From Nemertoderma westbladi (Eukaryota > Animalia > Xenacoelomorpha), in the NCBI GenBank assembly GCA_032718475.1, contig JAUCBJ010003994.1:1-53120 (forward strand): 53,120 nucleotides of DNA. The letters are read 5' to 3'. The translations under genes and the position numbers were made by a program. The notes below the pieces were generated by a model. That model was not told the origin of the DNA and did no database searches. It worked only from the letters and a program-made list of their open reading frames with translations. How positions within the stretch are numbered: the stretch's first letter is position 1; the number at the start of each line of letters is the position of its first letter. Shown piece by piece: positions 10,498-47,016 of the stretch.

Positions 10498-10877
10498 CTA
10501 CTACTACTAGGATCGGCATGCTGCATTGCAGCTGTACTTTTAACAATGTTGTGCCGGCTTGTCAACAAAATTGCACCACTACAACTCGCTATCACCCATG
10601 ACATTTGCTAGATCATCTGCATCTGTCATCTGTCATCATCGGCCAGTGTCCTTTACGATGCGTCTCAAGAAAGTCATGGGCTGTCCACCATGCCTATTCA
10701 CTCCATAGGGCTGCCAAAGCACAATATTATGTACTGGCTGGTCCTAACGGTGAAAGCAATGTCTTGCAAACCGGAGGCGGTTCCGTTCAAGTGTCAAGCC
10801 AGGAGAGATTAATGTAACACCTCCAATGTTGTATAGAGTCTGATTGGTGATGTGTTCGTGTACTTGACACATGCACT
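10498..10877 (-). mobile_element. Second RTE LINE 3' fragment with (TAG)n tail
   Basis: Diverged copy of positions 1-~360, ending in ctactactactag on the + strand; lies within the hATm element. Confidence 0.88.
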
Positions 10878-19389: not shown

Positions 19390-21930
19390 TAATCCAGTCC
19401 CTGGCCTTAAGTCCCGTAGGAATTTCGAGGTGGACGCCGTTTCTCACTTGAACTGGGTTTGGGGTCCAAAAATGAAGAAAAAAAATTGGGTAGACTTTTA
19501 GGTTCCTGGGCCTAAGTTTTTTATGACGTCATTTTATGACGTCATAAATATACAAATATTCATCTGTGTCCTCATCACTTTTCCAAATCAAGAGTACAAA
19601 TGATAATTATTATTTAGCTGTTACCAGAGTTAACCAATTATAACGGTTTTACGATGCTCCAATTCATCATAAACCGATCGAAGCGAGTTATAAAGAAACG
19701 AGGGCACAGTAAAATAGTTATATTGATATGATCACTGAGTGAATTTATTAAGAAATGTTAAATAATGTTAATTAAATGCTATGAATTATAAAATGTTCTT
19801 ATTATGGAATATTTTCGCACTCCATTTCAAAATTGCTTTTGCAAAATGATGTGCAAGAAACGATATCTTTCCGGCATCTGCATCGCATAGTATTGCACTT
19901 CTTGCAGAAGCAAGTAATCGTCGCCCATTTAGGTAGTTCATTATTCCAAGGATCGGGCATGATTGATGAGTCATTCTCATTAATAGACCATCCATAATCT
20001 GTTGGTTCTAGGTTGGGCGAGTTACTATTTAATACTGATGTACACAAATAAACATTGTAGAAGGCGCGCAACAAATGACCCTGCAATGAATGACTTGAAC
20101 AAGGAAGGTTTAATAAGTTTGGAGCACCTTCTTGTCTATCGATTTCGGATCGAAGACTGTCAAACGTTTTACTAGTCGATCGTGGCTTTATGACCTTAAC
20201 CAAATATTGCTCTGCATGTTTGAATGATTCTTTATTAGGTGGGAAACATCGCCCGAAGTTCTTTAAATAGAGTTCTGGGTGCACCTTTAGGGCTGCCCTT
20301 TTGGTGCCTATTTTGCTAGTAACATCAGATCCAGTGAGGTAATGACATGCAAGTATAGCCTCACTAATAGGACCGATCTGTTCCACAAGTCGATGAATTG
20401 GGATAAGTTCTGTTGACGTTTTTCTCATCCATAACTCTGACAAACCATTCTCGTGAAAAGTGTTGTAGAAATGGATGAGCAGCACCAACACATCGGTATC
20501 ATTTGAGAGCACGATGATTCTTTCAGATCCATCTTTAACCGCGTTCAAAATATGCGGAATGAGACGCAGGTCTGCTTCTTCAATGTTGAACTTCTCCAGA
20601 CCCTCGATCGCTCCTCCACTGTTCGCTTTTAGAATTACTCCAGGTATAGATTCATCTTCGCAAACTACACCACTTAAGATAGTGTCCCACGGTTGGTTTT
20701 CCAACACACCCAATATGAATCCTTTAAGCGCATCTTGTAACAACACTTTATTTTCTCCTGATGCCCAAAACCTATCTATCTGAACTGGAATCATCACATC
20801 AGGAGTAATGGAGGTGAGTGATAGTTGTTGAACTGAAGATCGTCTTTCTCTCTCTGCATTTTTGATCGATGATGGTAGGTAACTGTCAAAAACGTAATCA
20901 ACGCTTCGAAAATTTCACGAAATGTTCCCTTTCCCTTAAGTGGTATTCTGCGAAGTTGATTCATAACATCAACAACAAGACTTGTTTTTAGTGCGGTGTC
21001 TTTTTCAAAATTCATGTCTACACTTTCCATCATTCTCATTAACTCAGAAATTAAACTGGATTTCATTGGCTTAGTTGTAGCACCATGACTATCAATCAAA
21101 GACGATGGTGTGATATCGAAACTAAGGATCTCTTCCATTTCCATTCCTTTCCTTAGCGATATCAACTGACCTTTGCGATTGCAACAGTTCTTTGATAGAA
21201 TTTTTATGTTGTTGTTTTGAGCATTGATCCCCGATTGTTGTACTTTGAAAAGTAGGAAGATTTTGTCTATGTATGGTAGCTGATAGAGGCTTGTAGCACT
21301 TGATAAATCTTTCATAATGAAAGGAGGAATAGACATTGTCTGCCAGGGTCAAAAAGTTAAGTAGCTTTTCGGAAGTTGATGGTGGTACAATTTCGTTTGT
21401 TAATAAATTATGAAGTTTAACCTCACCTCCATTAATATAGGGATTTTCTTTGCATTCGATATACTGCACCATTTTTGCTATACTTAAATCCATCTCGTTT
21501 CTGAGGTTTCCACTTAACTCATGATGTATCTGCAGTTCATAATCGACTTGTCTAACATTAAGTAGTGCTTGCACTGCTTGTCGAATTGAAAGAACCTCAT
21601 GATAGACCAGGTTCCATTCTGCAATATAGTCTTTTCGCTTAGATTGACCAATAATTCCACCACTTGACTTTTGAGATCTATTTATTGTCTGTTCCAGAGC
21701 CATATCGACACCAACCGCATTAAACTTCCCTTTAGTTCTCCGTACAACAAAATGGCCTTTCATGAACTGATCATAAACCTCAGGATGTGATTTATCAAGA
21801 TTCAGCATTTGCTGAAGAAATAATGATCCCCACCTTAAGTAATTTATTCTGTCAAATATATGAAAAACAGGAATAACTTGCTTCATTGTTTCCAGATATA
21901 GTTTCATTGACATTGGAGTTGTCTCATTAG
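19390..21930 (-). mobile_element. Academ DNA transposon, 3' half
   Basis: Contains the Academ-type ORF remnant; putative terminus taatccagtc at 19390; 5'-truncated near the C-run at ~21931. Confidence 0.7.
19802..21915 (-). pseudogene. Academ transposase C-terminus, XPG/FEN-like nuclease and Cys-rich finger (frameshifted)
   Basis: NYLRW...HPEVYDQFMKGHFVVRRT...DMALEQTINRSQKSSGGIIG; EEADLR, SNDTDVLVLL, GSDVTS; terminal CFCKKC..RCRC...C..FC. Confidence 0.8.
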
Positions 21931-22362
21931 TCCCCCCCCCCAAGCTTGCATTAATTAGGTCGCAGAATCTGATGTGCGAATTTCGCGAATTCCGCAAATG
22001 CCATGAATTTTGCAAATGTCAAAAATGTTGGCATTACAAGACCTTGGGTACACATAGACCAGACATTATTTACCAGCTAGTTTTTTTTACAATGATAATA
22101 TAAATTATTATTACATGACAGAAAATGTTCTAGAACATGTTAGATATCAATTAAGAAAAATATCAATTAAGGTTCTGGAACACATTTTTTTGTTCTAGAA
22201 ATTTTTTTTGAAAAAATTAAATAGTACAGGGAACGTTATACACAACCCATTAAAAAAAAATTTTGAATAAAAAATATATATAATTTATCTTATTTACTTT
22301 ACTCTATTTTTTAAAATAAAAAAATATAAATATTTACTAGCTACCCTGAGAAGATGCAGTTA

Positions 22363-23283
22363 CACCATGTCCCAGAATATAGTGTCGTAATTCAGTAACA
22401 CCCTCCCCCCCCTAATTTTTCTACAAATCTTAATGAGATTGCATGAAATTTGAAACAGAGATAGTTTCACCTCCCGACCACTGACTGGGTGAGCCAGAGT
22501 TTTATTTTTGCTTTCAATCTTTAGCTACAAGCGTTTAAAAGAAGTATCTCCAGCGATATAACACCAGTTACACCGGAGTTATTATTCTACCTTATAGCTA
22601 GCTGTTTGTTGGTACCAATGGAAAGCTGGCCATGCAAGGATTCCAAATATCTAACACAATTTGAATTTCGTTAAAAAATAGCTGAGATATGAGCGTTCAA
22701 ATGTTGCATGGTTTTGCAACGACGCGAGGCTATTTTACTCTATTTAATAAATGCATCATAGTCTGGAATATATTGTATATCCAAATACGTAGCTGGGCAA
22801 CGGTGCATTACATCTTTAATCATACTATTATGTAGCTATTCATACATTTAAAAAATGTTCCAGAATATGGTTTATTTATTAATAGAATAAAATAGCCTCG
22901 TGTCATTGCAAAACCATGCAACATTTGAACGCTCATATCTCAGCTATTTTTTAACGAAATTCAAATTGTGTTAGATATTTGGAATCCTTGCATGGCCAGC
23001 TTTCCATTGGTACCAACAAACAGCTATAAGGTAGAAGAATAACTGCGGTGTAACTGGTGCAATATCGGCGGAGATACTTTTTTTAAACGCTTAAGATTAG
23101 TATTAGTTAGAAGTAGCTAAAGATTGAAAGCAAAAATACAAATTCTGGCTCACCCAGTCAGTGGTCGGGAGGTGAAACTATCTCTGTTTCAAATTTCATG
23201 CAATCTCATTAAGATTTGTAGAAAAATTAGGGGGGGGGGGGGTGTGTCACTGAATTACGACACTATATTCTAGGACATGGGCG
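22363..23283. mobile_element. Foldback MITE with ~390-bp inverted arms, TA-flanked (Tc1/mariner-like)
   Basis: 22361-~22750 is the near-exact reverse complement of ~22880-23285; TA at both outer ends. Confidence 0.85.
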
Positions 23284-25969: not shown

Positions 25970-28915
25970 TGGGGTTTGCCCCCTTAGGTATTTATTGCTG
26001 GTTACTGTTATATATTATTGGTTGGGTTTCCCCTTAGGTATTTCTTACCAGTTACTGTACTAGATTATTGGTTGGGTTCCCCCCTAGGTATTTATTACAG
26101 GTTACTGTTCTAGATTATTGGTTGGATTGGTGGTTGCCTTAGCCATTTCTTACCGGTTACTGTACTAGATTATTGGTTGGGTTGCCCCCTTAGCTATTTA
26201 TTACCAGTTACTGTACAAGATTATTGGTTGGGTTGGTTGCCTTAGCCATTTCTTACCGGATTACTGTACTAGATTATTGGTTGGGGTTCCCCCATAGGTA
26301 TTTATTACCGGTTACTGTACTAGATTTTTGGTTGGGTTTCCCCCTTAGGCATTTATTACCAGTTACTGTACTAGATTATTGGTTGGGTTGGTTGCCTTAG
26401 CCATTTCTTACCGGTTACTGTACTAGATTATTGGTTGGGGTTCCCCCCATAGGTATTTATTACCGGTTACTGTACTAGATTATTGGTTGGGTTTCCCCCT
26501 TAGGTATTTCTTACCAGTTACTGTACTAGATTATTGGTTGGGTTGGCTGCCTTAGCCATTTCTTACCGATTACTGTACTAGATTATTGGTTGGGTTTCCC
26601 CCTTAGGTATTTATTACCGGTTACTGTACTAGAGTATTGGTTGGTTTGCCCCATAAGGTATTTATTGCTGGTTACTGTTATATATTATTGGTGGGGTTCC
26701 CCTTAGGTATTTATTACCGGTTACTGTTCTAGATTATTGGTTGGGTTGCCCCCTTAGGTTATTTCTTACCAGTTACTGTACTAGATTATTGGTTGGGTTG
26801 CCCCCTTAGCTATTTATTACCAGTTACTGTACTAGATTATTGGTTGGGTTGGTTGCCTTAGCCATTTCTTACCGGTTACTGTACTAGATTATTGGTTGGG
26901 TTTCCCCCTTAGGTATTTATTACCGGTTACTGTACTAGAGTATTGGTTGGTTTGCCCCATAAGGTATTTATTGCTGGTTACTGTTATATATTATTGGTGG
27001 GGTTCCCCTTAGGTATTTATTACCGGTTACTGTACTAGATTATTGGTTGGGTTTCCCCCTTAGGTATTTATTACCGGTTACTGTTCTAGATTATTGGTTG
27101 GGTTGGTTGCCTTAGCCATTTCTTACCGGTTATTGTTCTAGATTATTGGTTGGGTTTCCCCCTTAGGTAATTATTACCGGTTACTTTACTAGATTATTGG
27201 TTGGGTTGCCCCCTTAGCTATTTATTACCGGTTACTGTACTAGATTATTGGTTGGGTTTCCCCCTTAGGCATTTATTACCGGTTACTGCACTAGAGTATT
27301 GGTTGGTTTGCCCCCTAGGTATTTATTACTGGTTACTGTTCTAGAGTATTGGTTGGTTTGCCCCCATAGGTATTTATTGCTGGTTACTGTTCTAGAGTAT
27401 TGGTTGGTTTGCCCCCATAGGTATTTATTGCTGGTTACTGTTATATATTATTGGTTGGGTTCCCCTTAGGTATTTATTACCGGTTACTGTACTAGATTAT
27501 TGGTTGGGTTCCCCCTTAGGTATTTATTACTAGTTACTGTACTAGATTATTGGTTGGGTTGCCCCCTTAGTTATTTCTTACCGGTTACTGTACTAGATTA
27601 TTGGTTGGGTTTCCCCCTTAGGTATTTATTACACGGTTACTGTACTAGATTATTGGTTGGGTTTCCCCATAGGTATTTATTACCGGTTACTGTACTAGAT
27701 TATTGGTTGGGTTTCCCCTTAGGTATTTATTACCGGTTACTGTACTAGATTATTGGTTGGGTTGCCCCCTTAGGTATTTATTACCGGTTACTCTACTAGA
27801 TTATTGGTTGGGTTTGCCCCTTAGGTATTTATTACTAGTTACTGTACTAGATTATTGGTTGGGTTGCCCCCTTAGGTATTTATTACCAGTTACTGTACTA
27901 TATTATTGGTTGGGTTTCCCCCTTAGTTATTTATTACCGGTTACTGTACTATATTATTGGTTGGGTTTCCCCCTTAGTTATTTATTACCGGTTACTGTAC
28001 TAGAGTATTGGTTGGTTTGCCCCATAAGGTATTTATTGCTGGTTACTGTTATATATTATTGGTGGGGTTCCCCTTAGGTATTTATTACCGGTTACTGTAT
28101 TAGATTATTGGTTGGGTTTCCCCCTTAGGTATTTATTACCGGTTACTGTTCTAGATTATTGGTTGGGTTGGTTGCCTTAGCCATTTCTTACCGGTTATTG
28201 TTCTAGAGTATTGGTTGGTTTGCCCCCATAGGTATTTGTTGCTGGTTACTGTTCTAGAGTATTGGTTGGTTTGCCCCCATAGGTATTTATTGCTGGTTAC
28301 TGTTATATATTATTGGTTGGGTTCCCCTTAGGTATTTATTACCGGTTACTGTACTAGATTATTGGTTGGGTTCCCCCTTAGGTATTTATTACAAGTTACT
28401 GTACTAGATTATTGGTTGGGTTGCCCCCTTAGTTATTTATTACCGGTTACTGCACTAGATTATTGGTTGGGTTGCCCCCTTAGGTATTTATTACCGGTTA
28501 CTCTACTAGATTATTGGTTGGGTTTCCCCCTTAGGTATTTATTACCGGTTACTGTACTATATTATTGGTTGGGTTTCCCCCTTAGTTATTTATTACCGGT
28601 TACTGTACTAGATTATTGGTTGGGTTGCCCCCTTAGGTATTTATTACCGGTTAATGTACTAGATTATTGGTTGGGTTTCCCCCTTAGGTATTTATTACCG
28701 GTTACTGTACTATATTATTGGTTGGGTTTCCCCCTTAGTTATTTATTACCGGTTACTGTACTAGATTATTGGTTGGGTTTCCCCCTTAGGTATTTATTAC
28801 CAGTTACTGTACTATATTATTGGTTGGGTTGGTTGCCTTAGCCATTTCTTACCGGATTACTGTACTATATTATTGGTTGGGTTTTCCCCTTAGGTATTTA
28901 TTACCGGTTACTGTA
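25970..28915. repeat. 51-bp tandem satellite, left arm
   Basis: Unit GGTTACTGTACTAGATTATTGGTTGGGTTTCCCCCTTAGGTATTTATTACC plus a 52-bp variant (...GGTTGCCTTAGCCATTTCTTACC). Confidence 0.98.
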
Positions 28916-29478
28916 TGTGACGGGATCCACCCAGGATCCCAGTTTATCCGGTTTCTAAACTACGCGTCGTCCCCGCCGTGTGTATGTGAAAAGGTGGAAA
29001 CAGTTATTGATCGTTGTATACAGTTCCAGGGTATAATAGTATAAGACAATAGTTGAATAATATAAGTGTACCGGTAAAATGATATGCAATGGTGACTGGA
29101 CAGAGATGACGGTATTTAGAGTTCCGGTACCGTCCTAACTAACTGACTTACTATAAGTGAATGAAATGATTACTGTATTGATAATATATATTGCACGGTT
29201 GGCCGCGTTGTACTACTCAACCGATGCCTCCCCCCCCCATTGGCTAATAACCCTGTTGTCGCCCTTTGCCTCCCCTGGAGGGTTTCCCTTCGCCCCTGTT
29301 GCTCTCTCTCTCTCAGGGGTGTAACCCCTGACCCCTGTTGTGCGTATGTCCTTTGGGGGTTTTCTTGTCCCCACTTTATTGGGGTGATACGAGGTTGATA
29401 TTGGATATCAACCTCGTGTTCCCAATATTGCTTAAAGCTCGCTTTGTGGGCTGGCTAGCGGAATTGAATACGGTAACA
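28916..29478 (-). repeat. 3' LTR (563 bp)
   Basis: tgtgacggg...ggtaaca; direct repeat of 41964-42534. Confidence 0.97.
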
Positions 29479-29487
29479 CTCCCCCCC
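29479..29487 (-). promoter_or_regulatory. Polypurine tract
   Basis: Minus strand GGGGGGGAG directly before the TGT of the 3' LTR. Confidence 0.9.
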
Positions 29488-30178
29488 ATGCTATCTTCCC
29501 GGTAGGAAGATAGCATCCACCTTTAGTGCGCTATAATTCCGCTGGATCTCGACCTAGTATCGAGTGTGGGGTGGAACTATTTTTTTGGAGCCGGTTTTCC
29601 AGACTGCCCCCTATGGGTATGATATCGCTACCCTGTTTACCTGGCGTCCCGTGTCGGGCCGATCATGTGCTCCTCTCACACGACTTTTGTTTCCCCAACA
29701 CTTTCGCCACTCTAACTCCACTCTATTCTCACCCTGACTCTCGCTACTTCTCCTCACTTCCGCTCTAACTTTCTGACTTCCCTGTCCCTCACTCAGCCTC
29801 TTGTTCCTCCCCCCCCACACTTGAATTGCACTCACACTCTCTCCGCACTCCGCACTATCGCTCCATTGCTCGACCCCTCTTTGGCTAACTTACTCATCTC
29901 TGACGAGTCTCACCCCCCTCTCCTGTGCCGTCGCACTCAGGAAATGTGAAGTCATCTAGTGTCTCGTTCGTCATAGTCAGTCATCCCCCGGTCCAGTAGC
30001 TAATTGGAAAAAGGTTGAGTGACTATAGTACCTACTTCGATTATATTTTGCTAAACTAATAATGATTACTACGTACGTACCTACTAATTGCACTTTTCAA
30101 TTATTTAAATTACTTAAATTTATACTTAGGAGTTCGCACGTCTAGCGTGGTGCCTTCCAGGCATGTTACTCCGAAGTC

Positions 30179-32427
30179 CTAGCTCGTTCCACCAGCCTTT
30201 GGGAACCACCTCAAGTCTTTCCCTTTGTCGTCCCCCTCCCTGGGTCGTTTCCTGGTCACTGCCGCTCCTCTGGTCTTCTCTGCTTTCTGGCTTCTGACTC
30301 TCGCCGCCACCTCCTTACTGATCCCGGTCGTCGACTCCTTGGGTGCCGGTGTTATTAGCTCCCGGTATCGCTTCACGGGTGGCCCCTCCGAGTGGCCCTG
30401 TTGTCTCCCCCTGGTGGCGTCTCATAGGATCATCTTCATTGCCCGCGGCACATGCTCCGCCAAGAAATCCCTAAACTCTCCTCTACTCTGTGGCGTCCAC
30501 CTATCCAAATACCTCTGCGTATTTATCACTCCGGCATATGATGCCGCCGTCGCCACTTCCTGGTAGGTAAACGGAAGCCTCCGTTTGATAATCTCCATGT
30601 GAGCCTCCTGATTGATGTTAAAGAAGCCCCACCGGAACTCCTGGGCCTTCATACGTTGCAGAGTCATCGCCCCGACGTCGGCCCATTCCTCGAAGATCCT
30701 AAACTTCTCTTCGTCGTCCATCCAGTCACACTGGCGTCCGTAATGTCCCCGAAAGTTACACTTCGTACATCGGTTATGCAACCGTGGACACGCCCCCATC
30801 CTGTGGCTCGACTCGCGGCAATAGAGACAACTAGTCCCTTTCTGGAACCGGTACAAACAGCTCCTTTCCTGGTGGGTCTGTCTCCCACAGTAGTCACAGC
30901 CGAGCACCAATGTCTCCCGCCCCACGTCGTCTTTCGTCCCAAGCGATCTCCGCGGTCTGTGGAGTCGCTGGTAAGCGAACTTCCGGACGTTAGTGTCCCT
31001 ATCTACGTCAATCTCCTCGCCCCTCTCGGGCATCGTCTCCCCGAATACTACCCGTGGTGCCGTCCCTGGTTGCTCGCCCAACCTGATAGTGCTCCCCGCG
31101 AAATCCATCGCCGGCTCCTCGTGCACCCAGGGCCACTTGCCGGGTCTATCCCAGAAGGCCCTCGCCCCACTGGCCGTCACCACCCTCCCGCCAACCCAGT
31201 CTGTGTCTGAGTGGCCGATCCTCCCGATGGGCGGCATCTCTCCGAACTCGTCGTCGTCCTCGTCCTCCTCTGGGAGTGGCTCCAACCCCGGTATCCCGGT
31301 GGACCCACTATGTCCCTTCCCGCCCGTAGCTCTCCATCCCTCTAGCTCCCCTAGCCTCCTTAGCGGCTGGTCGCCCTCGGCGCCCGCTGGTATGGGCGTC
31401 GCTTGCAATCCCGACGTCGACTGTTTCGGTGACCCCACTGTCCATCCCAATTCTCGCCATAGAGACTCCCCCGAACTCCCTGATGAAGTCCAACAAAGTT
31501 CGTCCAAGCCCGCCTGTTCCTCGAAGCCGTAGCTATCATTATCCAGTCCTCCTGTAGGATATATCGCTTCTGATATACCTTTATAGCTCCTCTCCGGAAT
31601 TGATATACCTCTTGTCTCCCTGGCCTCGCTCCCCACTTCAGCGAGTTCGCCAAGTCTGCTCTGTACTCCTCTCTGAACTTGCCCCAGTCCATCGGTTTGT
31701 GACACACGAGCCCCATTAACTGGCCCATCGCCACTGCCCCGCAATGTCCTGTGTTCTCTACTAGTCCCAATCCGTCCGGCGCTGTCATAGCCATGTAGAC
31801 CGTCTGCATATCCAGAAGGTTGGGGGTGTCCGGACCGATGATTCTCTCCGCGTCGTCGCGAATCGCCGATCCCACTTTCGTCGTTGACTTCTCTCTCACT
31901 AGTGCTTGCACCGCCTTCGGCAACCGGTTTAACTTCGGCCCATCCTTCTTTCCATACATTCCTAGATCGAATAGGAATATATCCCCATTTGGCGCGGCCA
32001 AATGTAGGAGTATGGTTCTGGCTGATGCCGCCGATCCTCTCCTCGAACCCTCCTCGTCTTCCATGGTCCCCTCATCGTCCAGGACCATATACCCTTCTCT
32101 GCTGACGGACTCTACGAACCTCTTCCAATCCTTCTTCGGTGGATCCCTTGCGTACTTCGGAATCCCGAACTTCGCTTCGTCTCCTTTTATCACGTAGTGG
32201 AAATGCTCGAAGATCGCGTTGTCCAGCGACGGCGTCCCGTAGGTCCCGACCAGCCGCTGTTCGTGCACCTCCCTGAAATGGTCCTGTAGCGCTCGCGCTG
32301 CGTGACCCCTCTTTAACCGTTCGTAGTATCCCCTCGTTCTCTCTTCCGGATGCCTCTTGGTGAAATCCACCAGTATCTCCTTTCCTCCTAGCTCCGCCAT
32401 TCTCTTTCGCACAAGTTTGCTTGCCAT
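30179..32427 (-). CDS. Extra ORF (frameshifted): DEDDy 3'-5' exonuclease (WRN/EXD2-like), linker, 3x CCHC zinc knuckle, basic tail
   Basis: ExoI VLDDEG; LLHLAAPNGDIFLFDL; ExoII LPKAVQALV...KVGSAIRDDAERI; ExoIII-like YQKRYILQED. Knuckles CDYCGRQTHQERSC, CLYCRESSHRMGAC, CTKCNFRGHYGRQC. Pieces lie in ORFs 31360-32430, 31308-31496, 30422-31744 and 30179-30376; their fusion is inferred. Confidence 0.8.
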
Positions 32428-32934
32428 CACTCGGTCGCTCGATCACTTTTTGCCCGATCACTCACCCGTTGGGTGGTGCCTTACCAAGGCGCAATAGGGT
32501 GAGTGATAGGTTAAGGTGGTTTATCTCAGTTCTATGGCCTATCTCCCTCTGGATTACTAAGTTAATTAGCCTATTTACACTGCTTGATATCTGTAGCTAC
32601 CAAATTGTACCTAAATTGTAAATTTGTCAGTTACTTTTATTATGTTCCAGAATTTTCTTGCTACTGTTACCATAATTTGTCAATTTCTTAGCCCTATCCT
32701 ATTTTAATATTTTTAATCTAATTCAATCCTACTATCGTGCTGCTACTTACTATTGCCTATGGATTATTCTATTTCATAATCCACATTCTGGCCTATTCTG
32801 TGGGCTTGTGCAGTACAACAGTATGCATCGCGTGGCCTACACGATTTATCCAGCTGTACTCATATGCCCCCCTCTCGCTACTAACTAGTAACTAATGTCT
32901 ATACTATATATATATCCCTCTACCTCTTACTCTT

Positions 32935-33350
32935 ACTAGCCGGTACTACGTACCCTCTTACTAACTTCTAACTCTCTCTAACTAACTAACTAATCGGTAC
33001 TGCGTACCCTCTTACTAACTCTTACTCCACTAACTGACTAACTGGTATTACGTACCCTCTTACTAACCTCTAACTCCATTAACTAACTAACGGTACTACG
33101 TACCCTCTTACTAACCTCTAACTCTCTCCAACTTACTAACGGTACTAAACCTCTTACTAAACTCTAACTTCTGCCTACTGACGGTACTACATACCCTCTT
33201 ACTAACTAACTTCTGCCTACTGACAGTACTACGTACCCTCTTACTAACTTCTGCCTACTGACGGTACTACGTACCCTCTTACTAACTAACTTCTGCCTAC
33301 TGACGGTACTACGTACCCTCTTACTAACTAACTTCTGCCTACTACTGCGT
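32935..33350. repeat. Internal tandem repeats between pol and the extra ORF (about 9 units of 40-55 bp)
   Basis: Core GGTACTACGTACCCTCTTACTAAC with variable spacers. Confidence 0.9.
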
Positions 33351-33496: not shown

Positions 33497-36400
33497 TCAA
33501 GGTGCCCCCTCTAGTAGACAGCATTTCCCTACAGCCCTCCTGTAGGTCTTTCTGTCTTTCGCACCTATCTTTCCACCTATTCGCACTTCTACCGATCGGA
33601 CTCTTCCGTCCTCATCGGAGTAAGTGCCCACAACTCTCGCCAACCGCCATTGGTTGTTGATGATGGTATCGTCCGTGACGATCACCAGATCACCCTCCTT
33701 TAACTCTCTGTTCGTGTTCCTCCACTTACTTCTTCTGTGTAGTGTGGGCAGATATTCCTCGACCCACCTCCTCCAGTACTCTGCGCTTATCGCCTTAGCG
33801 ACTTTCCAACTCTGGCGGGAGTGTATGTCATCTAGGTCTACACCCCGCATGTCGATTGTCGCTGGCCTTTCCATTAGAAGGTGACTGCGCGTCAGCACGT
33901 CTATTGACTCAGGGTCATCATTCTCTGGATATAGCTGTCTGTTATTAATGATACCCTCACACTTTGCCAGTACTGTCCTTAGTACGTCCTCTGTAACCAT
34001 GTGGGTGTTCATCAGCTTCGTCATCAGACGTTTCGAACTACCCACTAATCTCTCGACGTATCCTAGGGTATGCGGAGCATACGGCGTCCTCCTCTCCCAC
34101 TTTACTTGTCGCCTTCTCATGGCCGCCCTGACTTCCTCCCCTTCCAGGATATCCAAGGCCTCTGCCATCTCGTTCTCCGCCCCCACAAAGTTGGTCCCGC
34201 TGTCAGAATACATTACTGCGATCGTCCCACCTTTGTGGTCTCTAAATCTTTCTAAAGCATTAATGAATGCTGATGCGGTTGCATCTTGGGCGAGTTCTAT
34301 TCCTACCGCCCGCGTGTTGTTACATACGAAGATGATACCGTAGCGTTTCTCCGTGTGCCGCATCACCTTAATCTTTATCGGCCCGAACATATCCACACCG
34401 CAATGCGTAAATGGCGGGTCGTGCTGTCTTACTCTACTGGCCGGTAGTGGCGTCATTTCCTGTATGGCCCGTTCCTTCTTCGCTCGTCGGCAGCTCTGGC
34501 ACTGCCCCACTACCGCCTTTACCTTCTTCCTCAACTGTTTGACCCAAAAGGTCCTCCGTATCTCCGTGAGGGTTCGGTTGGTGCCCCCGTGCAATATTGA
34601 TTTGTGGGAGTCCCACATAATCTGGTGGACTATCGGCGATCCTGTGGGGATGATGATGGGCTTCGGTGGTACGACGATACTGTTGTTGTATCCCACCCGA
34701 GAGTTCATTACTAGGATCCCGTCGTCATTAAGTTGTGGTGACAGCGTGATCAGCTCGCTGTCCCGCCGGAGATGCTGTTGTTTACCGACGCGTTCCACCT
34801 CGTCGCCGTAGTTCTTCCTCTGCTCATAGCGGATGACTGCTTTGGCCGCTCCTTCCAGATCTATTGTCATTCTAATCTTCAAGTCTTTGCCAACTCCCTT
34901 GAGGAAATTCCCGAAGGCTCTCCAGTACGCCACTAACTTCTTGGTCTTGTACCAACTAGAACTGTAGCTAAGGAGTTTATCCGTCGGGTTATCGCACAGT
35001 TCTCCTGGTTTTGGTTGCACGCCCTTAATCTCCCTCACCATCTGGGAGTATATCTCCTCTCCCTCTGAATCTCCCTCTTCTCCTTCTGACACCACTTCTC
35101 CTGAGCCCGGGTCCACCTTTCTCATCGGCGGCCAGGCCTCCCTATCGCTCAGAAACTGTGGCCCGTGTTGCCACAATACTTCCTTCTTCAAGAAAGTGTG
35201 ACATACCACGCCCCTCGATAACAAGTCCGCTGGGTTCTCGTCCGTTGGGCAGTAGTGCCACCTTTCTAGTTCTGTGGTCGCCCTTATTTCGTCCACTCTA
35301 TTTGCGACGAATATACGGTATCTCGTCCTTTCATTGTGTAGCCAACCGAGCACTACCATGGAATCCGTCCAGTAGTGTGTTTCCACTATGTTGGGAATAG
35401 CGTCCACTAAGTAGGCTGTGGCCCTAACTCCTAATCTCGCAGCTGTCAACTCAAGTTTCGGAACTGATGCTGAGTCTGGTGGCGTCGACTTCGCTTTACT
35501 GAATGCGAGTCTGGGCTTGTGAGCCCCCTCTCGTTGTACTAAGTAGAGTGCCGCTCCATATGCCTCTAATGACGCATCGGAGAACATATGTAGATCCAGA
35601 TTCGTCATGTCCCCATCCGGGAAATATACACGTGGCATGCTGTATGTTCCCATCTGCTCTAAACTCTCTGTCCACTTGTTCCACTGCTTACTAATCTCTT
35701 CTGGGACCTCTGTGTCCCACTCATCCTTTAATTTGTATACTCTCTTGAGTATCTGTTTCCCCGTGACTAGTAATGGGGATGCTAGGCCTAGGGGATCGTA
35801 TATCCTCGCTATGTATGACACATAGCCCCTCTTTGTGTGGATACCTTCTCCCTCCTGACTCAATTGGTATTTTAACTCGTCTGTCTCTCTGTTCCACACG
35901 ATTCCCAGTGCCTTCTGTTGAGACTCCATCCTCTTGTTCGCCATGTCCTGCCCCTTGGCTGTTGTGGGATTATCCATGGTCGATCCTGGTCTCTCATCTT
36001 TTATCGCCTCGATAAATTCCTTCGAACTGGATTGGAATTTGGTTAGGTTGAAGCCGGATCCTTTAAGGATGTCGCGAACCTCGCGCCCTATGTCCAGTAG
36101 CTCCTTAACCGTATTTCCAGACTCCATCCCGTCGTCTACGTAGAAGCCGTGTCGAATCATATCGACGGCTCTAGTACTGTATTTATCTTCCTTTCCCTTT
36201 ACTGTGTCTCTTACAGCCATAGTCGTCGTAAACGAAGACGACTTGGCTCCCATATTCTGTACTATCATCTTATACATTGGTATGGTCGACGGTTCCTCAT
36301 CGCCGTCGTACCATAGGAAGCGTTGGCTGTCGCTATCCTCTTTCGTTACACGGACTTGGTTGAACATGCCTTCGATGTCGCAGGTGAAAGCGTGTTTGCC

Positions 36401-36745
36401 ATTCCTGAATCTGAGTAGGACCTCGATCCCTGAGTTGTAGATGTTGGGACCCTCCAGCAGATAATCGTTTAGGCATTTCCCGTTGGTCTTGGCTGATGCG
36501 TCAACTACCATCCGCAGTTTACCTTTCTTCGGGTCTATAGCCACGTGGAGTGGCAGGTAATAGGTCCTGTCCGTGTTTGGCTCGTCGACCGGTAACTCCA
36601 CGGCCCATCCTTTCTCGACATATTTTCTAATTGTCTTGTGGATGTACTCATTCTTTTCGGGGCTCCGTTTTAACATCTGCTTTAACTTGCGAAGCCTCGT
36701 AAGTACCATCCCTTTGTTGTCGGGTAACGGTAGCTTCGGTAGCTT
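33497..36745 (-). CDS. pol: BEL/Pao Pol: reverse transcriptase, RNase H, integrase
   Basis: YYLPLH, LRMVVDAS, CDIEGMFNQV, FYVDD; LHMFSDAS, PKLEL, YWTDS, NPADLLSRG; HHCC, GVDMFGP, SDSGTNF, ERLVG; C-terminal YWRRWVEEYLPTL. Open for 1070 aa. Confidence 0.97.
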   Translation of the reverse strand, partial: KLPKLPLPDNKGMVLTRLRKLKQMLKRSPEKNEYIHKTIRKYVEKGWAVELPVDEPNTDRTYYLPLHVAIDPKKGKLRMVVDASAKTNGKCLNDYLLEGPNIYNSGIEVLLRFRNGKHAFTCDIEGMFNQVRVTKEDSDSQRFLWYDGDEEPSTIPMYKMIVQNMGAKSSSFTTTMAVRDTVKGKEDKYSTRAVDMIRHGFYVDDGMESGNTVKELLDIGREVRDILKGSGFNLTKFQSSSKEFIEAIKDERPGSTMDNPTTAKGQDMANKRMESQQKALGIVWNRETDELKYQLSQEGEGIHTKRGYVSYIARIYDPLGLASPLLVTGKQILKRVYKLKDEWDTEVPEEISKQWNKWTESLEQMGTYSMPRVYFPDGDMTNLDLHMFSDASLEAYGAALYLVQREGAHKPRLAFSKAKSTPPDSASVPKLELTAARLGVRATAYLVDAIPNIVETHYWTDSMVVLGWLHNERTRYRIFVANRVDEIRATTELERWHYCPTDENPADLLSRGVVCHTFLKKEVLWQHGPQFLSDREAWPPMRKVDPGSGEVVSEGEEGDSEGEEIYSQMVREIKGVQPKPGELCDNPTDKLLSYSSSWYKTKKLVAYWRAFGNFLKGVGKDLKIRMTIDLEGAAKAVIRYEQRKNYGDEVERVGKQQHLRRDSELITLSPQLNDDGILVMNSRVGYNNSIVVPPKPIIIPTGSPIVHQIMWDSHKSILHGGTNRTLTEIRRTFWVKQLRKKVKAVVGQCQSCRRAKKERAIQEMTPLPASRVRQHDPPFTHCGVDMFGPIKIKVMRHTEKRYGIIFVCNNTRAVGIELAQDATASAFINALERFRDHKGGTIAVMYSDSGTNFVGAENEMAEALDILEGEEVRAAMRRRQVKWERRTPYAPHTLGYVERLVGSSKRLMTKLMNTHMVTEDVLRTVLAKCEGIINNRQLYPENDDPESIDVLTRSHLLMERPATIDMRGVDLDDIHSRQSWKVAKAISAEYWRRWVEEYLPTLHRRSKWRNTNRELKEGDLVIVTDDTIINNQWRLARVVGTYSDEDGRVRSVEVRIGGKIGAKDRKTYRRAVGKCCLLEGAP

Positions 36746-38765
36746 TCATACCATCCCTATGGTATACCGCCCCTCATCGCATGTCATCGATTCCTTTACA
36801 CTTTGTAAAGCCTGCTTGTCTTCTACCGAGGTTCCAACCCCGGTCTCCTTTAATCCCTCAAAATCCTGCCTGAGCAGTCTCCTGAGCTGCTCCTCTGCTC
36901 CCTCATCCCCCATTTCTCGCATAGTTCCCGCGAACATGCATCCTGATGTCTCCGACATCCTAAATGGTATCTTACTCTTGATTGGGCCACTCAGTGTCCA
37001 CCCGAATGGTGTCAATATCGCCACCGGGTCACATTGCCTGTCTTCGCCGAAGACCGTTTGCATTCTCTCGTGGGCCGTCGGGCAGTCCATTCCTACTATG
37101 ATGGATACCTTCCTAACATCCACCTCTGGGATTGAGAAGTCGATACTGTCCAGGAATCTGTATTGTTCGACCTCGATGTTGGTTGGCCGCCTGGCGTTAA
37201 TATTTATCGACTCTATCACCTGGATGGGGTCGATGGTCGCCCCATAATCGCATCCCGGTGCTACCGCTGCTATCGCGCACCGTCCAGTTCTCATCTCCAG
37301 AACCTCATCTTTGCTGGATATGGTTGTTACCGCCATTCTACTTGGCCTCGTTCTCAATCCTATCTCTTCAGCCACCCAATCCTCAACTAAGGTGAAGGCT
37401 GCACCACTGTCGACCAGCATCAGTGTGGTTACTGATCGGTTGCCTTTGCCGATTATCCTTACTGGTACTACCCCTAATAGTACCGTCCCTCTCTTTTTTG
37501 CTACTACGGTGCTTGTTGCCATCGTTTGTCCTTTACTCTGACCGAACTTAATTGGCGTTTCTCTGCATTGTCTAGCCCTGTGTCCACTCATCACACATTG
37601 CGAGCAGATCTCATTTCTCGCCGCGTATTCTACCTGATCTTCTCTGGGTAGCACCTGCCAGTACCTGCAGTTCATGGTCCGATGAAGCGCATTTGAATGT
37701 AGCTGGCATTTGCTCTTTGGATCGTAGCCATCCTTATACAGTGCATTGTGTATCGCAGTTGCATTTGTACCAAAGTCCTTACTGTTCTTATTGTTTGGAT
37801 TCGGCCTACTGGGCGTACTGGGGTTATGTTTGTCCATGTTGTTATTTTTCCCCTGTCCGCTCCATGATGTCGTCTTACCCCCGGCTACCTGTGGACTGGT
37901 AGTCCCCTGCGTTGCTGCGTACGGCAGTGACTGTCTGAGCTTTGGCAATGCGCCGACGCGTTATGCTCTGGTTTCGGCCTTTGGTAATCGGTCTTTGATC
38001 CCTTTCCCAGGCTATCCTCGCTGTAGACTGGGTCCGTTATAAGTTCAGCTTCATAGTTTAAGAAGCTCGACATCTCTTCTAAACCCGGTTCCGCACCCTT
38101 CCTATCTCGAGTGGAGAAAGCGATTTTCCTCCACTTATTGCGCAGCCACATCAGAAGTGCCTGGGCTATCGTAGTGATGTTGTTGGACGCATTGAGTTCG
38201 TATGGCGCATCCAATGTCTTTAGCACAATTAGCGCCTTCTCGACTTTGTAAGCAAATGTCTTTATGCTAACGGGGTTATCCTGTAGGCCACCCGATGTTA
38301 TACCTTCAGGGTCTGCCGGATGATCTTGGCCGGGTGCCCGTATTCCCTGTCTAACGCCCGCCATGCCGTCGTGAAGCCACCCTCGATACCCTGGTATTGC
38401 CTCACGATGTCGTATGCTGGGCCCCCTGTATATACTTGCAGATACTTTAGGCACTCCGCCTGCGTCAAATTTTTTGTTAATATTTCGTTACTATACATGC
38501 GCCGAAACTGTAGGTATTCTTCCGGCCTACTCCCATCGAATTTGAATGGTTCCACGGGTGGTAACTCGATCCTTGTTTTTAGTGCATCGATTAACGTGGC
38601 CATCCCCATCGCTTGCGCTTCCAATGGGTTCGATGGATGCTGCATAGGTTCTCCCGTTGGGTGCGGTCCGTTCGTCCTGTTTGCCGCTTTTCTCTGACTT
38701 GGATATATCATAGGGGGTAGCGGCCCCCTCAATATTTCTGTGTCGCATGATCTATTCTCGTCCAA
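36746..38765 (-). CDS. gag: BEL/Pao Gag core, zinc knuckles and aspartic protease (frameshifted)
   Basis: PFKFDG..EEYLQF...YLQVYTGGPA...AWRALDREYG (DUF1759-like); CQLH...H...C and CSQCVMSGHRARQC; LVDSGA; TPFGWTLSGP. Confidence 0.9.
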
Positions 38766-41700
38766 GGGGTTCGATGTTCTTACTCCTACTGAGGTATATT
38801 GTTGATATTGTGATGGGGGAATGTCACCCTGCCCCCCCCCCCCCCCCCCCCACCGGTATGTTTGGTACTGGGGTTGATGTTAATATATTGGAGCCCATGC
38901 ATCTATCCGCAATAATCCCCCCTTCCCCTGGGTATATGTTATGTCCTTGCATGCTGTAGTCATACTGCTGTGCTGGTACCGGTATAGGCCTATCTACTTC
39001 TGGCCTCCTTGCCGGTATATACTCCGTGACTTCCGGGTTTAATCCCGCTGTTCGCGCTATCCTATCGCCTATATTATCTCCCTCAGCATAGCCTATGGTA
39101 TGTGCAGTAAGGCCTACAGTATGTCCTGCAGTCTGTATGTGTCGCTCGGGATCGAAGTTTATCCTTCTCGAATAATCCTCGATAATTAATTAATAATCCC
39201 CGACCCTCGGATAATTCTCAATCGGTAGGTATATCCCGTCGGGAAGTTTCTCTTCGACCCCCTCTACTGCTTTCGTTCTCGTGCCGGTACATCCCGTACC
39301 CCTTTCTCTGCGCGCAATACAAGAAAGTCAGGTCGCGTTCCTCCGGGGCGACGGCAATCTCCCGAAGTTCGACCCCGCTGACTCTCCGTCTCCACCTCTA
39401 CTACCGACGGCTCGCTATCCGTCCTCGCTCTCCTGTCATTCGCGGCGACACTTTTTCTACTCTCTTCTCTTCTTCTCTTTTCAGTGCAGTATTCCGGCTC
39501 GTGAGATCTCTCGTCGACCTCCCGGTTAAACTCCACTGTTCTTCTTCCCTCTTCTGATTGGGCTCGACGCTTCGTCCGCCCTCTCGTGACGTCAACCTGC
39601 CTCTCTCTGCTCGACTGCACGCCGCTGGGGATACTCGCAATCCCCCTATCACTCTCCGTCGCCGGGTGTTGCGGTTTACCTATCTCGGCCCGCGCATTAT
39701 CCGTCGACGCCTGTGGGACACTCTCTGCCCCCCCCCCTTTTCGCCGCTAACTCGCTGTTGTGGGGCTCCTATAGCCCCCCCCCCCCCCCACTCGCCACAT
39801 CTAACTTCACTATCTCTTACTTCGCTACTATACCCCTCTCTAGCCGACACATCAACCCTACTGCGGCTGGGTCTATTCACCCCCGCCTCTCCCTCTGCTA
39901 CTGTGTGGCCTACCAGGCCCTCTACTTCCTGCCTACTAACTACGTGGCCTACCAGGCCCTCGCTAGGTTTACCCAACCCAGCCACTCCCTGCCTACTAAC
40001 TACGTGGCCTACCAGGCCCTCTCCGGGTTGGCTCAACCCCGCCACTTCCGGCCTACTAACTAAGTGGCCTACCAGGCCCTCTTCGGGTTGGCTCAACACC
40101 GCAACTTCCTGCCTACTAACTGCACGGCCTACCAGGCCCTCATCTGCCGGGTTATACATGTCTGATACGTTCACGTTAATAGCACCACTAATATTGTCAT
40201 TGGTTAGATCAATTAAATCCTCTAACTCGATTAAGTTACTTTGTGCGCCCAAATTAGAAACGGAATTATTTTGCTCGTTCGAAATAAGATTATTTGAATT
40301 ATTTTGTAAATTCAGACTTATATTTAAATTATTTGAATTATTTTGTAAATTCGGACTTAGATTTAAATTATTTGAATTATTTTCTACATTAATATTAGAA
40401 TCACTCGGATTTAAATTACTACTGTCGGGCAAAATATTATTTCCTGCAATGAAAGTTTGATTAGAATTATCTAGTACGGTACTATTAATATTAACGTTGT
40501 CTACTGTATCATTATTATTACCCCCCCCCCCCCCCCCCCGCCCGTACGGTTACACCAGTCTCGGGTCTGTCGTGCGGTCCCTGTAAGTGGGGTATTAATA
40601 AATGTTTCTTCGACCCTTGGCTCCTCGAAAGCACTCGAGCCAGCGTCACTCTCTGACAGCCTCATCTGGGCCATTCTTAGTCTGCGCTTCTGTTTGGTTT
40701 GGTACTGAATAAGCCCCCCTAGGCAGGCATGTAAACCATCCCGCACACGCTTCCCCTATGCTGCTCTCTCCCGACTCTCCCGCGCGCTCTGCTCGGCCAA
40801 ATCCCTCTCTCTCTCAACTCTCTCCATTCGTTTCGCCTCCCTTGCCACCTCACGCTCTTTACATTCTGCCTCGCGCTCTTTTCGTTCTGCCTCGCGCTCT
40901 TTACGTTCACACTCCTCTCTCGCCTCACGCCCTTCTTGTTCCTTCCTCCCTATTTCCTCACACTCCCTAAAGCTTCTTGTGGCTTTCTCAGCCCTCTCTC
41001 CGGTCTCTCTAACCAGTTCCATTTCTTTCTCTAATAGCACTCTCCCCTCCTCTAACTGTCTCTCTACTTCTCTCTGGTCTTGCGCTATCAGATCAAGATG
41101 ACACGCCGCATTTATTTCCCTCACCCGTCTTTCTTTTACGGAGGATGTAGCAGACTTATCGGTTATGACGGATTCCCTCCGCCTTCCCGTCCTACTAACC
41201 CCCCCCCCCTTTTTCCGGAACTTTCTCCGACCGACGAGACCGAATCCTCGGGGTTAACCTCGGATTCGCCCTCCTGCGGTTTCCTCCAACCCACTAATTT
41301 TATTCCCCGGGCATCGACTAAGTATGGCCCTACGTACACTATGCTAGGTTCCATACCCCTACATTCCCATAGTTCAAACAGTTCGGTGGCAACCCCTCTC
41401 GCTCTCTCGCTGGCTAGTTCTCCCTGCCCAAAACGCTTTAGATAGTCAAAGTGTTCGTTCGACTCACCTAGTCTTTTCTTCAAGTTTACATCATTTATCT
41501 GGGCCCCCTCTTTGGCCTCCTTAAGTAGTTTCCGGGTCGCGTTGTAGGCCCGTCGAAGTTGATAGCTGACCCCGACGTCCTCGTCGCCGACATCTCCTCT
41601 ATCTCTCCGGGTCCGGCGTCGTACCGGCGGCCCCACCGTCGCCGTTCCGGTGGGCCGTCCATCGCCCTCGGCCTGTGGCTGGCCGGCGACACTGGCACGT

Positions 41701-41895
41701 CGACCGCCGTCGTGTGTCGACTCGTCTCTCTCTCCTCCCGACTCACCCTCTAGTTGTAGACGGCTCCCCTCGCATTGGATCACCGGGTCACCCGTTGGCG
41801 ATGGGTCCGGTGTCGTGGGCCTATACCGTCGTGTCGCGGATCGTTAGATCGCTGTCCGGGGTCCGCGGCGGTGTCGTTTCTCCCGTTTGACTCAT
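38766..41895 (-). pseudogene. Long low-complexity N-terminal extension of Gag (fragmented)
   Basis: First ATG after the 5' LTR at 41895 (MSQTGETTPP); Glu/Arg coiled coil 40756-41124; Asn-rich 13-aa repeats; 20-aa EGLVGHVVSRQEV repeats. Several breaks lie near G homopolymers. Confidence 0.6.
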
Positions 41896-41963: not shown

Positions 41964-42534
41964 TGTGACGGGATCTACCCAGGATCCCGGTTTATCCGGT
42001 TTCTAAACTACGCGTCGTCCCCGCCGTGTGTATGTGAAAAGGTGAAACAGTTATTGATCGTTGTATACAGTTCCAGGGTATAATAGTATAAGACAAGATA
42101 AGACAATAGTTGAATAATATAAGTGTACCGGTAAAATGATATGCAATGATGACTGGACGGAGATGACGGTATTTAGAGTTCCGGTACTGTCCTAACTAAC
42201 TGACTTACTATAAGTGAATGAAATGATTACTGTATTGATAATATATATTGCACGGTTGGCCGCGTTGTACTACTCAACCGATGCCTCCCCCCCCCATTGG
42301 CTAATAACCCTGTTGTCGCCCTTTGCCTCCCCTGGAGGGTTTCCCTTCGACCCTGTTGCTCTCTCTCTCTCAGGGGTGTAACCCCTGACCCCTGTTGTGC
42401 GTATGTCCTCTGGGGTTTTCTTGTCCCCACTTTATTGGGGTGTTACGAGGTTGATATTGGATATCAACCTCGTGTTCCCAATATTGCTTAAAGCTCGCTT
42501 TGTGGGCTGGCTAGCGGAATTGAATACGCTAACA
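41964..42534 (-). repeat. 5' LTR (571 bp)
   Basis: Direct repeat of 28916-29478; by eye about 10 substitutions and a few small indels. Confidence 0.97.
42216..42248 (-). promoter_or_regulatory. Putative LTR core promoter (TATA box and initiator)
   Basis: Minus strand TATATATT with Inr-like TCATTC about 28 nt downstream; CCAAT about 55 nt upstream. Confidence 0.5.
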
Positions 42535-45500: not shown

Positions 45501-46520
45501 CGGTTACTGTACTAGATTATTGGTTGGGTTTTCCCCTTAGGTATTTATTACCGGTTACTGTACTAGATTATTGGATGGGTTTTCCCCTTAGGTATTTATT
45601 ACCGGTTACTGTACTAGATTATTGGTTGGGTTTTCCCCTTAGGTATTTATTACCGGTTACTGTACTAGATTATTGGATGGGTTTTCCCCTTAGGTATTTA
45701 TTACCGGTTACTGTACTAGATTATTGGTTGGGTTTTCCCCTTAGGTATTTATTACCGGTTACTGTACTATATTAATGGTTGGGTTCCCCCCTTAGGTATT
45801 TATTACCGGTTACTGTACTAGATTATTGGATGGGTTTTCCCCTTAGGTATTTATTACCGGTTACTGTACTAGATTATTGGTTGGGTTTTCCCCTTAGGTA
45901 TTTATTACTGGTTACTGTACTAGATTATTGGTTGGGTTGGCTGCCTTAGCCATTTCTTACCGGTTACTGTACTAGATTATTGGTTGGGTTTTCCCCTTAG
46001 GTATTTATTACCGGTTACTGTACTAGATTATTGGTTGGGTTTTCCCCTTAGGTATTTATTACCGGTTACTGTACTAGATTATTGGTTGGGTTGGCTGCCT
46101 TAGCCATTTCTTACCGGTTACTGTACTAGATTATTGGTTGGGTTTTCCCCTTAGGTATTTATTACCGGTTACTGTACTAGATTATTGGTTGGGTTTTCCC
46201 CTTAGGTATTTATTACCGGTTACTGTACTAGATTATTGGTTGGGTTTTCCCCTTAGGTATTTATTACCGGTTACTGTACTAGATTATTGGTTGGGTTGGC
46301 TGCCTTAGCCATTTCTTACCGGTTATTGTTCTAGATTATTGGTTGGGTTTTCCCCTTAGGTATTTATTACCGGTTACTGTACTAGATTATTGGTTGGGTT
46401 TTCCCCTTAGGTATTTATTACCGGTTACTGTACTAGATTATTGGTTGGGTTTTCCCCTTAGGTATTTATTACCGGTTACTGTACTAGATTATTGGTTGGG
46501 TTTTCCCCTTAGTTATTTAT
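42535..46520. repeat. 51-bp tandem satellite, right arm
   Basis: Same unit as the left arm; resumes in register at ctgta-ctagattattgg. Confidence 0.98.
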
Positions 46521-46560: not shown

Positions 46561-47016
46561 GTATTGCAGCATGCAAATCGCAGATTTCATGATGGGGGCA
46601 ATCTGTGGCATATATTTTTTTGTTAATCCAACATATAGTTCTTGACAATTCATTTACAATACTACATGTACTATATTCTTACAAACTGTATAGTCACATA
46701 ACAATCGAAAACACATAATTATCAAGATATGCAATCATATGATCATAAGATTTAATAATCCATTATAAGACTCTTACTTTTTAGCAATATTTATCGCCAT
46801 TTATTAATTATTATGACAATGTATGACAATAAAGTTAATTAAAATAGTTAATAGTTTTAATTAACTTTATCTTATTCCTGAAGATTATTTTTGTATGAAA
46901 TGTTTTTTGCATGTTATGTAATTTTTAAATTCTGTTGACAAAATTAATAAACTTTAACTAAGTTATAATTTTTATAAAACAGTGGATATATTATATATTA
47001 TTATAATCATTTGTAG

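Follow-up and report, generated by a model that had tools for sequence, protein, structure and literature searches.

DEDDy exonucleases have been described as third open reading frames (ORF3) in the Juno and Vesta LTR elements of bdelloid rotifers and in Athena/Terminon elements, where the available sections of the describing paper give the motif as DEED (Rodriguez, Kenefick, & Arkhipova, 2017; PMC5408684). The rotifer ORF3 case is cited, in the accessible parts of each paper, by PMC6431247, PMC6338049, and PMC5718144. DNA transposons that carry exonucleases include Dada (DEDDy; PMC3706591) and KolobokD (DEDDh; PMC9587614), according to the portions of these two papers that are available. For the family Belpaoviridae, an env-like gene is the sole third gene given (PMC8742986), and the main text of the 2011 survey of BEL/Pao elements does not contain the word exonuclease (0 occurrences; PMC3118150). 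In this study, we describe a BEL/Pao element from Nemertoderma westbladi (contig JAUCBJ010003994.1, positions 1 to 53,120; the whole of this stretch of DNA is referred to as the window) that carries an exonuclease-like frame, ORF3a, overlapped over its entire length by a longer zinc knuckle frame, ORF3b. The explanation that we prefer, and to which we give an even chance, is that these are two overlapping genes in the env position, one for an EXD2/WRN-like nuclease and the other for a triple-knuckle protein of ~760 codons.

The locus resembles the rotifer ORF3 in that a probable DEDDy/DnaQ-like ORF of putative function, without a transmembrane segment, lies behind pol, where env would be (PMC5408684, available sections). 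It differs in its motif, which reads D-E-D-E in ORF3a instead of DEED, the two having been compared by description only (PMC5408684, same sections). Moreover, neither knuckles nor an overlapping frame are described for the rotifer ORF3 in those sections (PMC5408684), whereas both occur in the BEL/Pao element reported here. If ORF3a has the predicted fold, it shares with Dada and KolobokD a transposon-borne, DnaQ-like 3′-5′ exonuclease that has been proposed to act on the element's own intermediates; however, as far as the available portions of the two papers describe them, Dada and KolobokD are cut-and-paste DNA elements, and in Dada the domain lies inside the transposase (PMC3706591, PMC9587614). 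An initial annotation of this DNA, made from its letters alone, knew of no BEL lineage with such an architecture. This holds for the BEL host, which we did not find in the literature, but not for the exonuclease, since DEDDy ORF3s of LTR elements have been in print since 2017 (PMC5408684, available sections). What is new, then, is the BEL host, the WRN/EXD-like type of the domain, and the long overlapping knuckle frame; exonuclease ORF3s themselves were already known. Our search of the open literature (Repbase and subscription journals being outside its scope) found neither a BEL element with an exonuclease ORF3 nor an overprinted accessory gene in a retrotransposon.

The host element is BEL/Pao, a placement that follows from its Pfam domains (DUF1759, aspartyl protease, Pao peptidase A17, integrase zinc finger, and DUF5641) and that, together with the LTRs and the target site duplication, confirms the initial annotation. 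The Pfam models lie along the element in the order PF03564, PF13650, PF05380, PF17921, PF18701, that is, gag followed by PR-RT-RH-IN with BEL-specific domains, and the matches within pol are strong (E 2e-42 for PF05380, 8e-24 for PF18701, and 5e-12 for PF17921). The LTR pair differs by 9 mismatches over 561 aligned columns, with 14 further gap columns, and a 5-bp duplication, CTGTA, flanks the element at 28911-28915 and 42535-42539; the insertion site is a 51-bp satellite. As in the Belpaoviridae described in the accessible parts of PMC8742986 and PMC3118150, there are LTRs, the PR-RT-RH-IN order, Pao Pfam domains, a polypurine tract, and a position for a third gene, though the length of 13.6 kb exceeds the 4.2-10 kb usual for BEL/Pao. 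The window copy is decayed or imperfectly assembled. Its gag, for which ATG 41894 is the inferred start, is split into several frames, the splits falling near the long G runs of the gag-protease region (at 41209, 40539, 39789, 39737, and 38851), and a stop parts the protease from RT. The features of the element are collected in the table.

Table. Features of the BEL/Pao element and of its env-position region (window coordinates)
Feature	Position	Strand	Details
Complete LTR retrotransposon	42534-28916	minus	13.6 kb
5′ LTR	41964..42534	(-)	571 bp, TG...CA
gag-protease region	36749..41894	(-)	several frames in window copy; DUF1759, gag knuckles, aspartyl protease DSGA
pol	33497..36745	(-)	RT (YVDD), RNase H / Pao peptidase A17 model, integrase, DUF5641; 1082 codons open
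Predicted hairpin	32454..32510	(-)	directly upstream of the exonuclease ATG; spans two splice-donor-like motifs (32484, 32465)
ORF3b	30179..32461	(-)	-1 frame, 760 codons, overlaps the whole of ORF3a
ORF3a	31360..32427	(-)	ATG 32427 to stop 31360; 355 aa; probable DnaQ/DEDDy-like exonuclease domain at ~residues 99-300
ExoI, D117-x-E119 (L-D117-D-E119)	32071..32079	(-)	aligns to D-x-E of RNase D and PolA-type domains
ExoII, D192	31852..31854	(-)	paired by hhalign with the ExoII Asp of RNase D
ExoIII-like, Q286-K-R-Y289-I-L-Q-E293-D-W	31543..31572	(-)	by eye against RNase D Q-C-E-Y-A-A-A-D-V-W
Acidic patch EEDEDDDE	31247..31270	(-)	in ORF3b
Three CX2CX4HX4C zinc knuckles	30728..30898	(-)	starts 30898, 30829, 30769; all exact
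Basic tail	30179..30421	(-)	80 aa, 20 K/R and 10 D/E; behind a copy-specific stop
12-bp perfect hairpin, then G-rich polypurine tract	29481..29516	(-)	adjoins the 3′ LTR
3′ LTR	28916..29480	(-)	565 bp, TG...CA

ORF3a very probably has the DnaQ/DEDDy fold. Its top match in the ESM Atlas is annotated as Werner syndrome-like exonuclease (score 0.94, 175 shared features, on a background in which shuffled proteins score 0.9 in 4-10% of cases), PF01612 is present in 38% of the members of the top cluster, and the family matches were concordant in 10/10 cases, the top family being the one predicted in advance. For profile comparisons, we used a set of 30 bacterial PF01612 loci and the E. coli RNase D. 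With hmmsearch --max and profiles built from 31 and 17 sequences, 1 and 3 of 1000 shuffles, respectively, were as good as ORF3a at low bit scores, and home-built profiles ranked ORF3a first or second among the 49 ORFs of the window. The hhalign score against 21 bacterial PF01612 domains was 23.9, whereas shuffles averaged 12.9 and reached at most 22.1 (0/150 as good); this alignment places ExoI and ExoII in register, with a probability of just 6.6%, and ends before ExoIII. In global mode, hhalign gave no usable alignment, and 34/150 shuffles were as good.

Structure prediction, a check that had been proposed for this locus, points the same way when guided by family sequences. An AlphaFold model guided by 15 family rows reached a pLDDT of 67.6 and matched DnaQ-fold structures at Z 11-12 (rmsd 3.3-4.1, 157-179 residues aligned), a comparison that the guidance by family rows makes partly circular. 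The unguided, single-sequence model had a pLDDT of 32, and a fold search from it is meaningless. When the guided model was submitted to Foldseek, EXD2 was the top match (E 8e-5), and Egalitarian, a plant protein, Exd1, and RICE1 came next. None of these five was among the sequences that guided the model, which were bacterial. As to the subgroup, the top rows of both the Atlas and Foldseek favor WRN/EXD over Rrp6, RNase D, or PolA, and the VIA rows were tied across subgroups. The proposal that this is a DEDDy-like domain of the WRN/EXD type is supported by the Atlas score, by the absence of an equally good shuffle in hhalign, and by the rank of EXD2 in Foldseek.

Sequence searches were far less productive. 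The exonuclease had 0 matches in Pfam, NCBIfam, or PHROG, even at E 10; the comparison with PF01612 and zf-CCHC that had been suggested at the outset thus gave no Pfam match for the exonuclease and, for the knuckles, a weak match only, to zf-CCHC_4 (E 0.058). HMMER against 1.84 billion representatives found no true homolog of the exonuclease; its two matches were TPR proteins that matched a short stretch and are not homologs. Three word-seeded homolog searches, two with the exonuclease and one with the knuckle region, were empty, and loci L001, L003, and L004 were dropped as seed-driven chance matches. No relative of the exonuclease or of pol was found on viral contigs and no relatives among plasmids and phages, and PDB sequences held no match to the exonuclease. 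In its predicted fold and in ExoI and ExoII, ORF3a resembles the cellular PF01612 group (EXD2, WRN-exo, Egalitarian, EXD1, and Nibbler). It departs from that group in its identity of <20%, in the lack of an HMM match, in the replaced ExoIII Asp, in an N-terminal extension of ~100 aa of no known family, and in its retroelement setting.

ExoI had been called intact. This holds for its D-x-E, and the Asp of ExoII, D192, is likewise present, but for the catalytic site as a whole the word would be overstated, because ExoIII is non-canonical. Instead of Y-x3-D, the alignment by eye against RNase D reads Y289-x3-E293, with Glu at the position of Asp, and the MAFFT alignment puts Y275-x3-R279 there. 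The ExoI residues, numbered D118/E120 in the initial annotation, are D117/E119 when counted from ATG 32427, and they fall on invariant D/E alignment columns. Judged by its motifs, the domain is best classed as DEDDy-like and not as a canonical DEDDy member, and whether it would be catalytically active is predicted to be about evenly balanced, since Glu stands in ExoIII where Asp belongs. Independently of the question of frames, it could plausibly be a catalytically weak or dead RNA-binding adaptor with a DEDDy fold, comparable to Egalitarian or EXD1, although we lean slightly away from this. The replacement of the ExoIII Asp by Glu (or by Arg in the MAFFT alignment) and the Foldseek matches that come after EXD2, with Egalitarian, Exd1, and a complex that contains I-factor retrotransposon RNA among them, speak in its favor, and EXD1 is characterized as an inactive, RNA-binding DEDD derivative in the available sections of PMC5408684. 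However, the D and E of ExoI and the D of ExoII are kept, Glu remains a carboxylate, and the neighbouring D294 could serve in its place.

The exonuclease and knuckle region lies on the sense strand of the element between pol and the 3′ LTR, the env position, as had been recognized from the start. Neither of its frames contains a transmembrane segment (maximum 19-residue hydropathy of 1.21 in the exonuclease frame and 0.49 in the knuckle frame), and an env-like reading of the third gene was dropped. The three CX2CX4HX4C knuckles of ORF3b are exact, as first reported, and even one such knuckle arises in just 2/20,000 residue shuffles; the ESM Atlas neighbours of this part are CCHC proteins, with scores of 0.88 or less. 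The frame of the knuckles is exactly -1 relative to that of the exonuclease and has no ATG before 31237. In the window copy it is interrupted by two stops, at 32074-32072 and 30424-30422, the second of which follows the last knuckle by ~100 residues. The basic tail that had been noticed behind the knuckles is present with its 20 K/R in 80 aa, but it is separated from them by the stop at 30424-30422. This stop looks private to the window copy, because every sister contig that covers position 30422 differs from the window there. The proportion of disorder-promoting residues is 0.64-0.71 in the overlapping -1 frame and 0.52 in the exonuclease. With overprinted viral genes, the region shares a putative gene in a second frame, open over an older one, and a disorder-rich composition.

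The accessory region is a family component common to sister copies. The stretch was present, whole or in part, in five sequencing runs from three studies; sister contigs, which are short and range in identity from over 99% to under 90%, cover the region in 30/30 bins for X1 and X3 and in 27/30 for X5, and single sister contigs run across both of its ends, reaching the spacer on one side and the 3′ UTR on the other. Nor do terminal inverted repeats bound the region. A nested insertion, or absence from sister copies, either of which had been put forward as a way in which the initial annotation might fail, is contradicted by the lack of such repeats and by the coverage in X1, X3, and X5, and a nested DNA transposon was accordingly dropped. 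The region is apparently under selection. In a count based on 39 of 40 variable sites (position 30422 omitted), the 40 being a tool-chosen sample out of 419, and with sub-region frame boundaries that were set after looking, the exonuclease frame was degenerate at 10/15 variable sites between 31540 and 32427 (expected 0.37, p 0.019), the -1 frame at only 2/15 of the same sites, and the pol control gave 10/13. The signal was weak in the knuckle ORF (6/11, p 0.16). Sites 31450, 31459, and 31495 remain degenerate in the exonuclease frame, and the degeneracy switches from the exonuclease to the knuckle frame near 31450-31440, a boundary that is placed by few sites.

The openness of the -1 frame above the exonuclease is unusual. 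Across the 355 exonuclease codons this frame has 1 stop compared to 10.6 expected (0/20,000 synonymous shuffles), and in the conservative interval 32427-31540 it has 1 compared to 6.6 (P 0.0014), figures that come from one copy and were tested post hoc among about a dozen frame tests. Both halves are low (1 vs 4.7 in the 5′ half, P 0.005; 0 vs 2.3 in the other). The +1 frame over the exonuclease is normal, with 18 stops for 17.9 expected, and so are the -1-frame controls in pol (50 vs 47.8), the protease (23 vs 19.8), the knuckle ORF (15 vs 12.4), and two gag pieces; 158 pol windows of 296 codons have 9 stops or more. The depletion is specific to stop-forming junctions (1/69, compared to 15/81 for other T|A or T|G junctions; Fisher p 0.0004; pol p 0.79), and a conservative version of the test gave 1/58 vs 10/68 (p 0.009). 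From the LTR divergence, ~0.7 new -1-frame stops would be expected in the window copy, and 2 were seen (P 0.17).

The initial annotation took the exonuclease and the knuckles to be a single protein of ~750 aa. This could not be upheld for the window copy, in which the two are in different frames, nor did the sister contigs provide a frame-shifting indel. It might be argued that such a protein exists in the family and that a frameshift private to the window copy broke it shortly behind ExoIII, given that this copy has several gag frame breaks and the private stop at 30422. Of the contig pieces shown, the fewest bridge 31535-31545, a spot directly behind ExoIII, and since the contigs are also short, a frame-shifting indel may have been missed; single low-depth contigs do carry larger deletions in the overlap, some of them not multiples of three. 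However, the indel table for 30150-32480 (9 rows, complete) lists between 30279 and 32428 just a 3-nt and a 12-nt indel, in one X5 contig, and no 1-2 nt indel at a share of 10% or more, and the same method picked up 1-nt indels in gag. A broken fusion also leaves unexplained why stops are so few in the -1 frame upstream of 31540, and it does not fit the three sites downstream of that point at which the exonuclease frame continues to be degenerate. We therefore consider a single protein unlikely.

A splice, or a programmed shift of ribosomes into the -1 frame, late in the overlap could also join the exonuclease to the knuckles, so that the two frames would be the family state and yield a short and a long product. 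The exact -1 relation of the knuckle frame, its lack of an upstream ATG, and the switch of degeneracy are in keeping with such a fusion, which we nevertheless hold to be distinctly unlikely. No canonical slippery heptamer (X XXY YYZ) occurs in 31300-32120, and none of six relaxed candidates has a significant downstream fold where tested, the fold downstream of G TTA AAC at 31933 having a z of +1.31. No strong splice acceptor pattern was found either, and a late shift has no need for an open 5′ half of the -1 frame.

Returning to two overlapping genes, we picture the following arrangement. The exonuclease may derive from a cellular gene of the EXD/WRN type that was captured by the element, with a later extension of the knuckle frame over it, by overprinting. 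The N-terminal arm of ORF3b, probably disordered, would then overlie the exonuclease gene, while its C-terminal half would hold the CCHC knuckles and the basic tail. One subgenomic RNA would yield both proteins, the -1 frame being entered by a non-AUG start, a splice, or an early shift as candidate routes. Inside the particle, the knuckle protein would bind the element's own RNA, and it is possible, although we suggest it tentatively, that the nuclease domain binds or trims intermediates of element RNA or cDNA at their 3′ ends. That the whole forms a dual-coding BEL/Pao cassette, in which a captured, EXD2/WRN-like D-E-D-E nuclease is overprinted over its whole length (~1 kb) and co-expressed with the knuckle protein as a nuclease-plus-targeting pair, is to our mind a prospect only just short of even. 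If true, Belpaoviridae would gain their first enzymatic third gene of a non-env kind, and retrotransposons one of the rare genes that are overprinted throughout.

The nuclease might alternatively suppress small-RNA silencing by trimming or degrading piRNAs or siRNAs, with the knuckle protein providing the targeting. Nibbler, Exd1, and RICE1, which are cellular relatives that act in small-RNA pathways, are among the structural matches of the guided model, and diverged copies of the family are numerous (5,889 contigs in X1). By analogy this role is conceivable but improbable. Against it, small RNAs still cover those rotifer elements that have a DEDDy ORF3, and copy number shows no clear relation to this, in the available sections of PMC5408684. 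That the region is a captured host fragment carried as neutral cargo, its -1 frame being open by chance, is very improbable: homologs were not found, the statistics come from a single copy, and the ORF3s sequenced in PMC5408684 vary near-neutrally within genomes according to its available sections, but the degenerate-site bias, the short indels, all in-frame inside the region, the stop depletion, and the three exact knuckles stand against it.

With this element, putative exonuclease ORF3s reach a second LTR superfamily beyond the rotifer elements, which suggests that retrotransposons gain 3′-5′ exonuclease domains repeatedly and for a common reason. The multi-copy family permits tests of selection for which the rotifer families had too few copies. 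Should the -1 frame be translated, the element would offer an uncommon example of overprinting among retrotransposon genes, and an annotation based on one consensus ORF would miss the overlap.

Two predicted RNA structures accompany the region. A comparison with Rfam gave no notable match. The hairpin upstream of the exonuclease ATG has a z of -2.85 for 32445-32520 and of -1.70 in a wider window. The perfect hairpin beside the 3′ LTR, next to the G-rich polypurine tract at 29487-29481, has a fold z of -3.37, with 0/200 shuffles as good.

The accessory region of the BEL/Pao element, which carries the exonuclease-like and zinc-knuckle ORFs, is not uniformly retained among sister copies. In some of the short contigs representing these copies in sequencing runs X1 and X5, 0.5-1.5 kb is skipped within window 30441-32348, indicating that internally deleted copies of the accessory region exist.

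Toward the 3' LTR, a perfect 12-bp inverted repeat (29488-29516) is found immediately upstream of the element's G-rich polypurine tract, and its fold scored z -3.37 against shuffles. This hairpin may act as a packaging signal or as a plus-strand priming signal. At the opposite end of the element, the low-complexity coding stretch that follows the 5' LTR (Table) gave no match in a Pfam search; it is either an upstream ORF in its own right or the N-terminal part of a gag that would be very long. The element itself has integrated into an array of a 51-bp satellite, with approximately 58 copies flanking it on one side (25976-28915) and approximately 78 on the other (42534-46520).

Repeats and coding features in the window
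Feature	Position	Strand	Remarks
44-bp satellite	2044-4984		67 copies, 92% matches
Matching inverted arms, several	10080-14499		~3.8-4.3 kb apart
Three overlapping ORFs	19802-22018	-	S-N-D-T-D-V motif, C-terminal Cys cluster
Nested inverted repeat, 0.9 kb	22365-23280		beside the three ORFs
Tandem repeat array, 38-54 bp units	32981-33343		AT-rich spacer separating pol from accessory region
60-bp in-frame tandem repeat	39924-40141		3.6 copies, within gag region
Long low-complexity, coiled-coil-like coding stretch	40756-41894	-	directly after 5' LTR
ORF with Laminin_G_3/ConA-like lectin domain	47007-47687	+	Pfam E 2e-6

Outside the element, the three overlapping ORFs likewise had no match in a Pfam search, and they resemble a broken transposon-type nuclease gene. 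The lectin-domain ORF is possibly a host exon, and the inverted arms are possibly the remnant of a DNA transposon.
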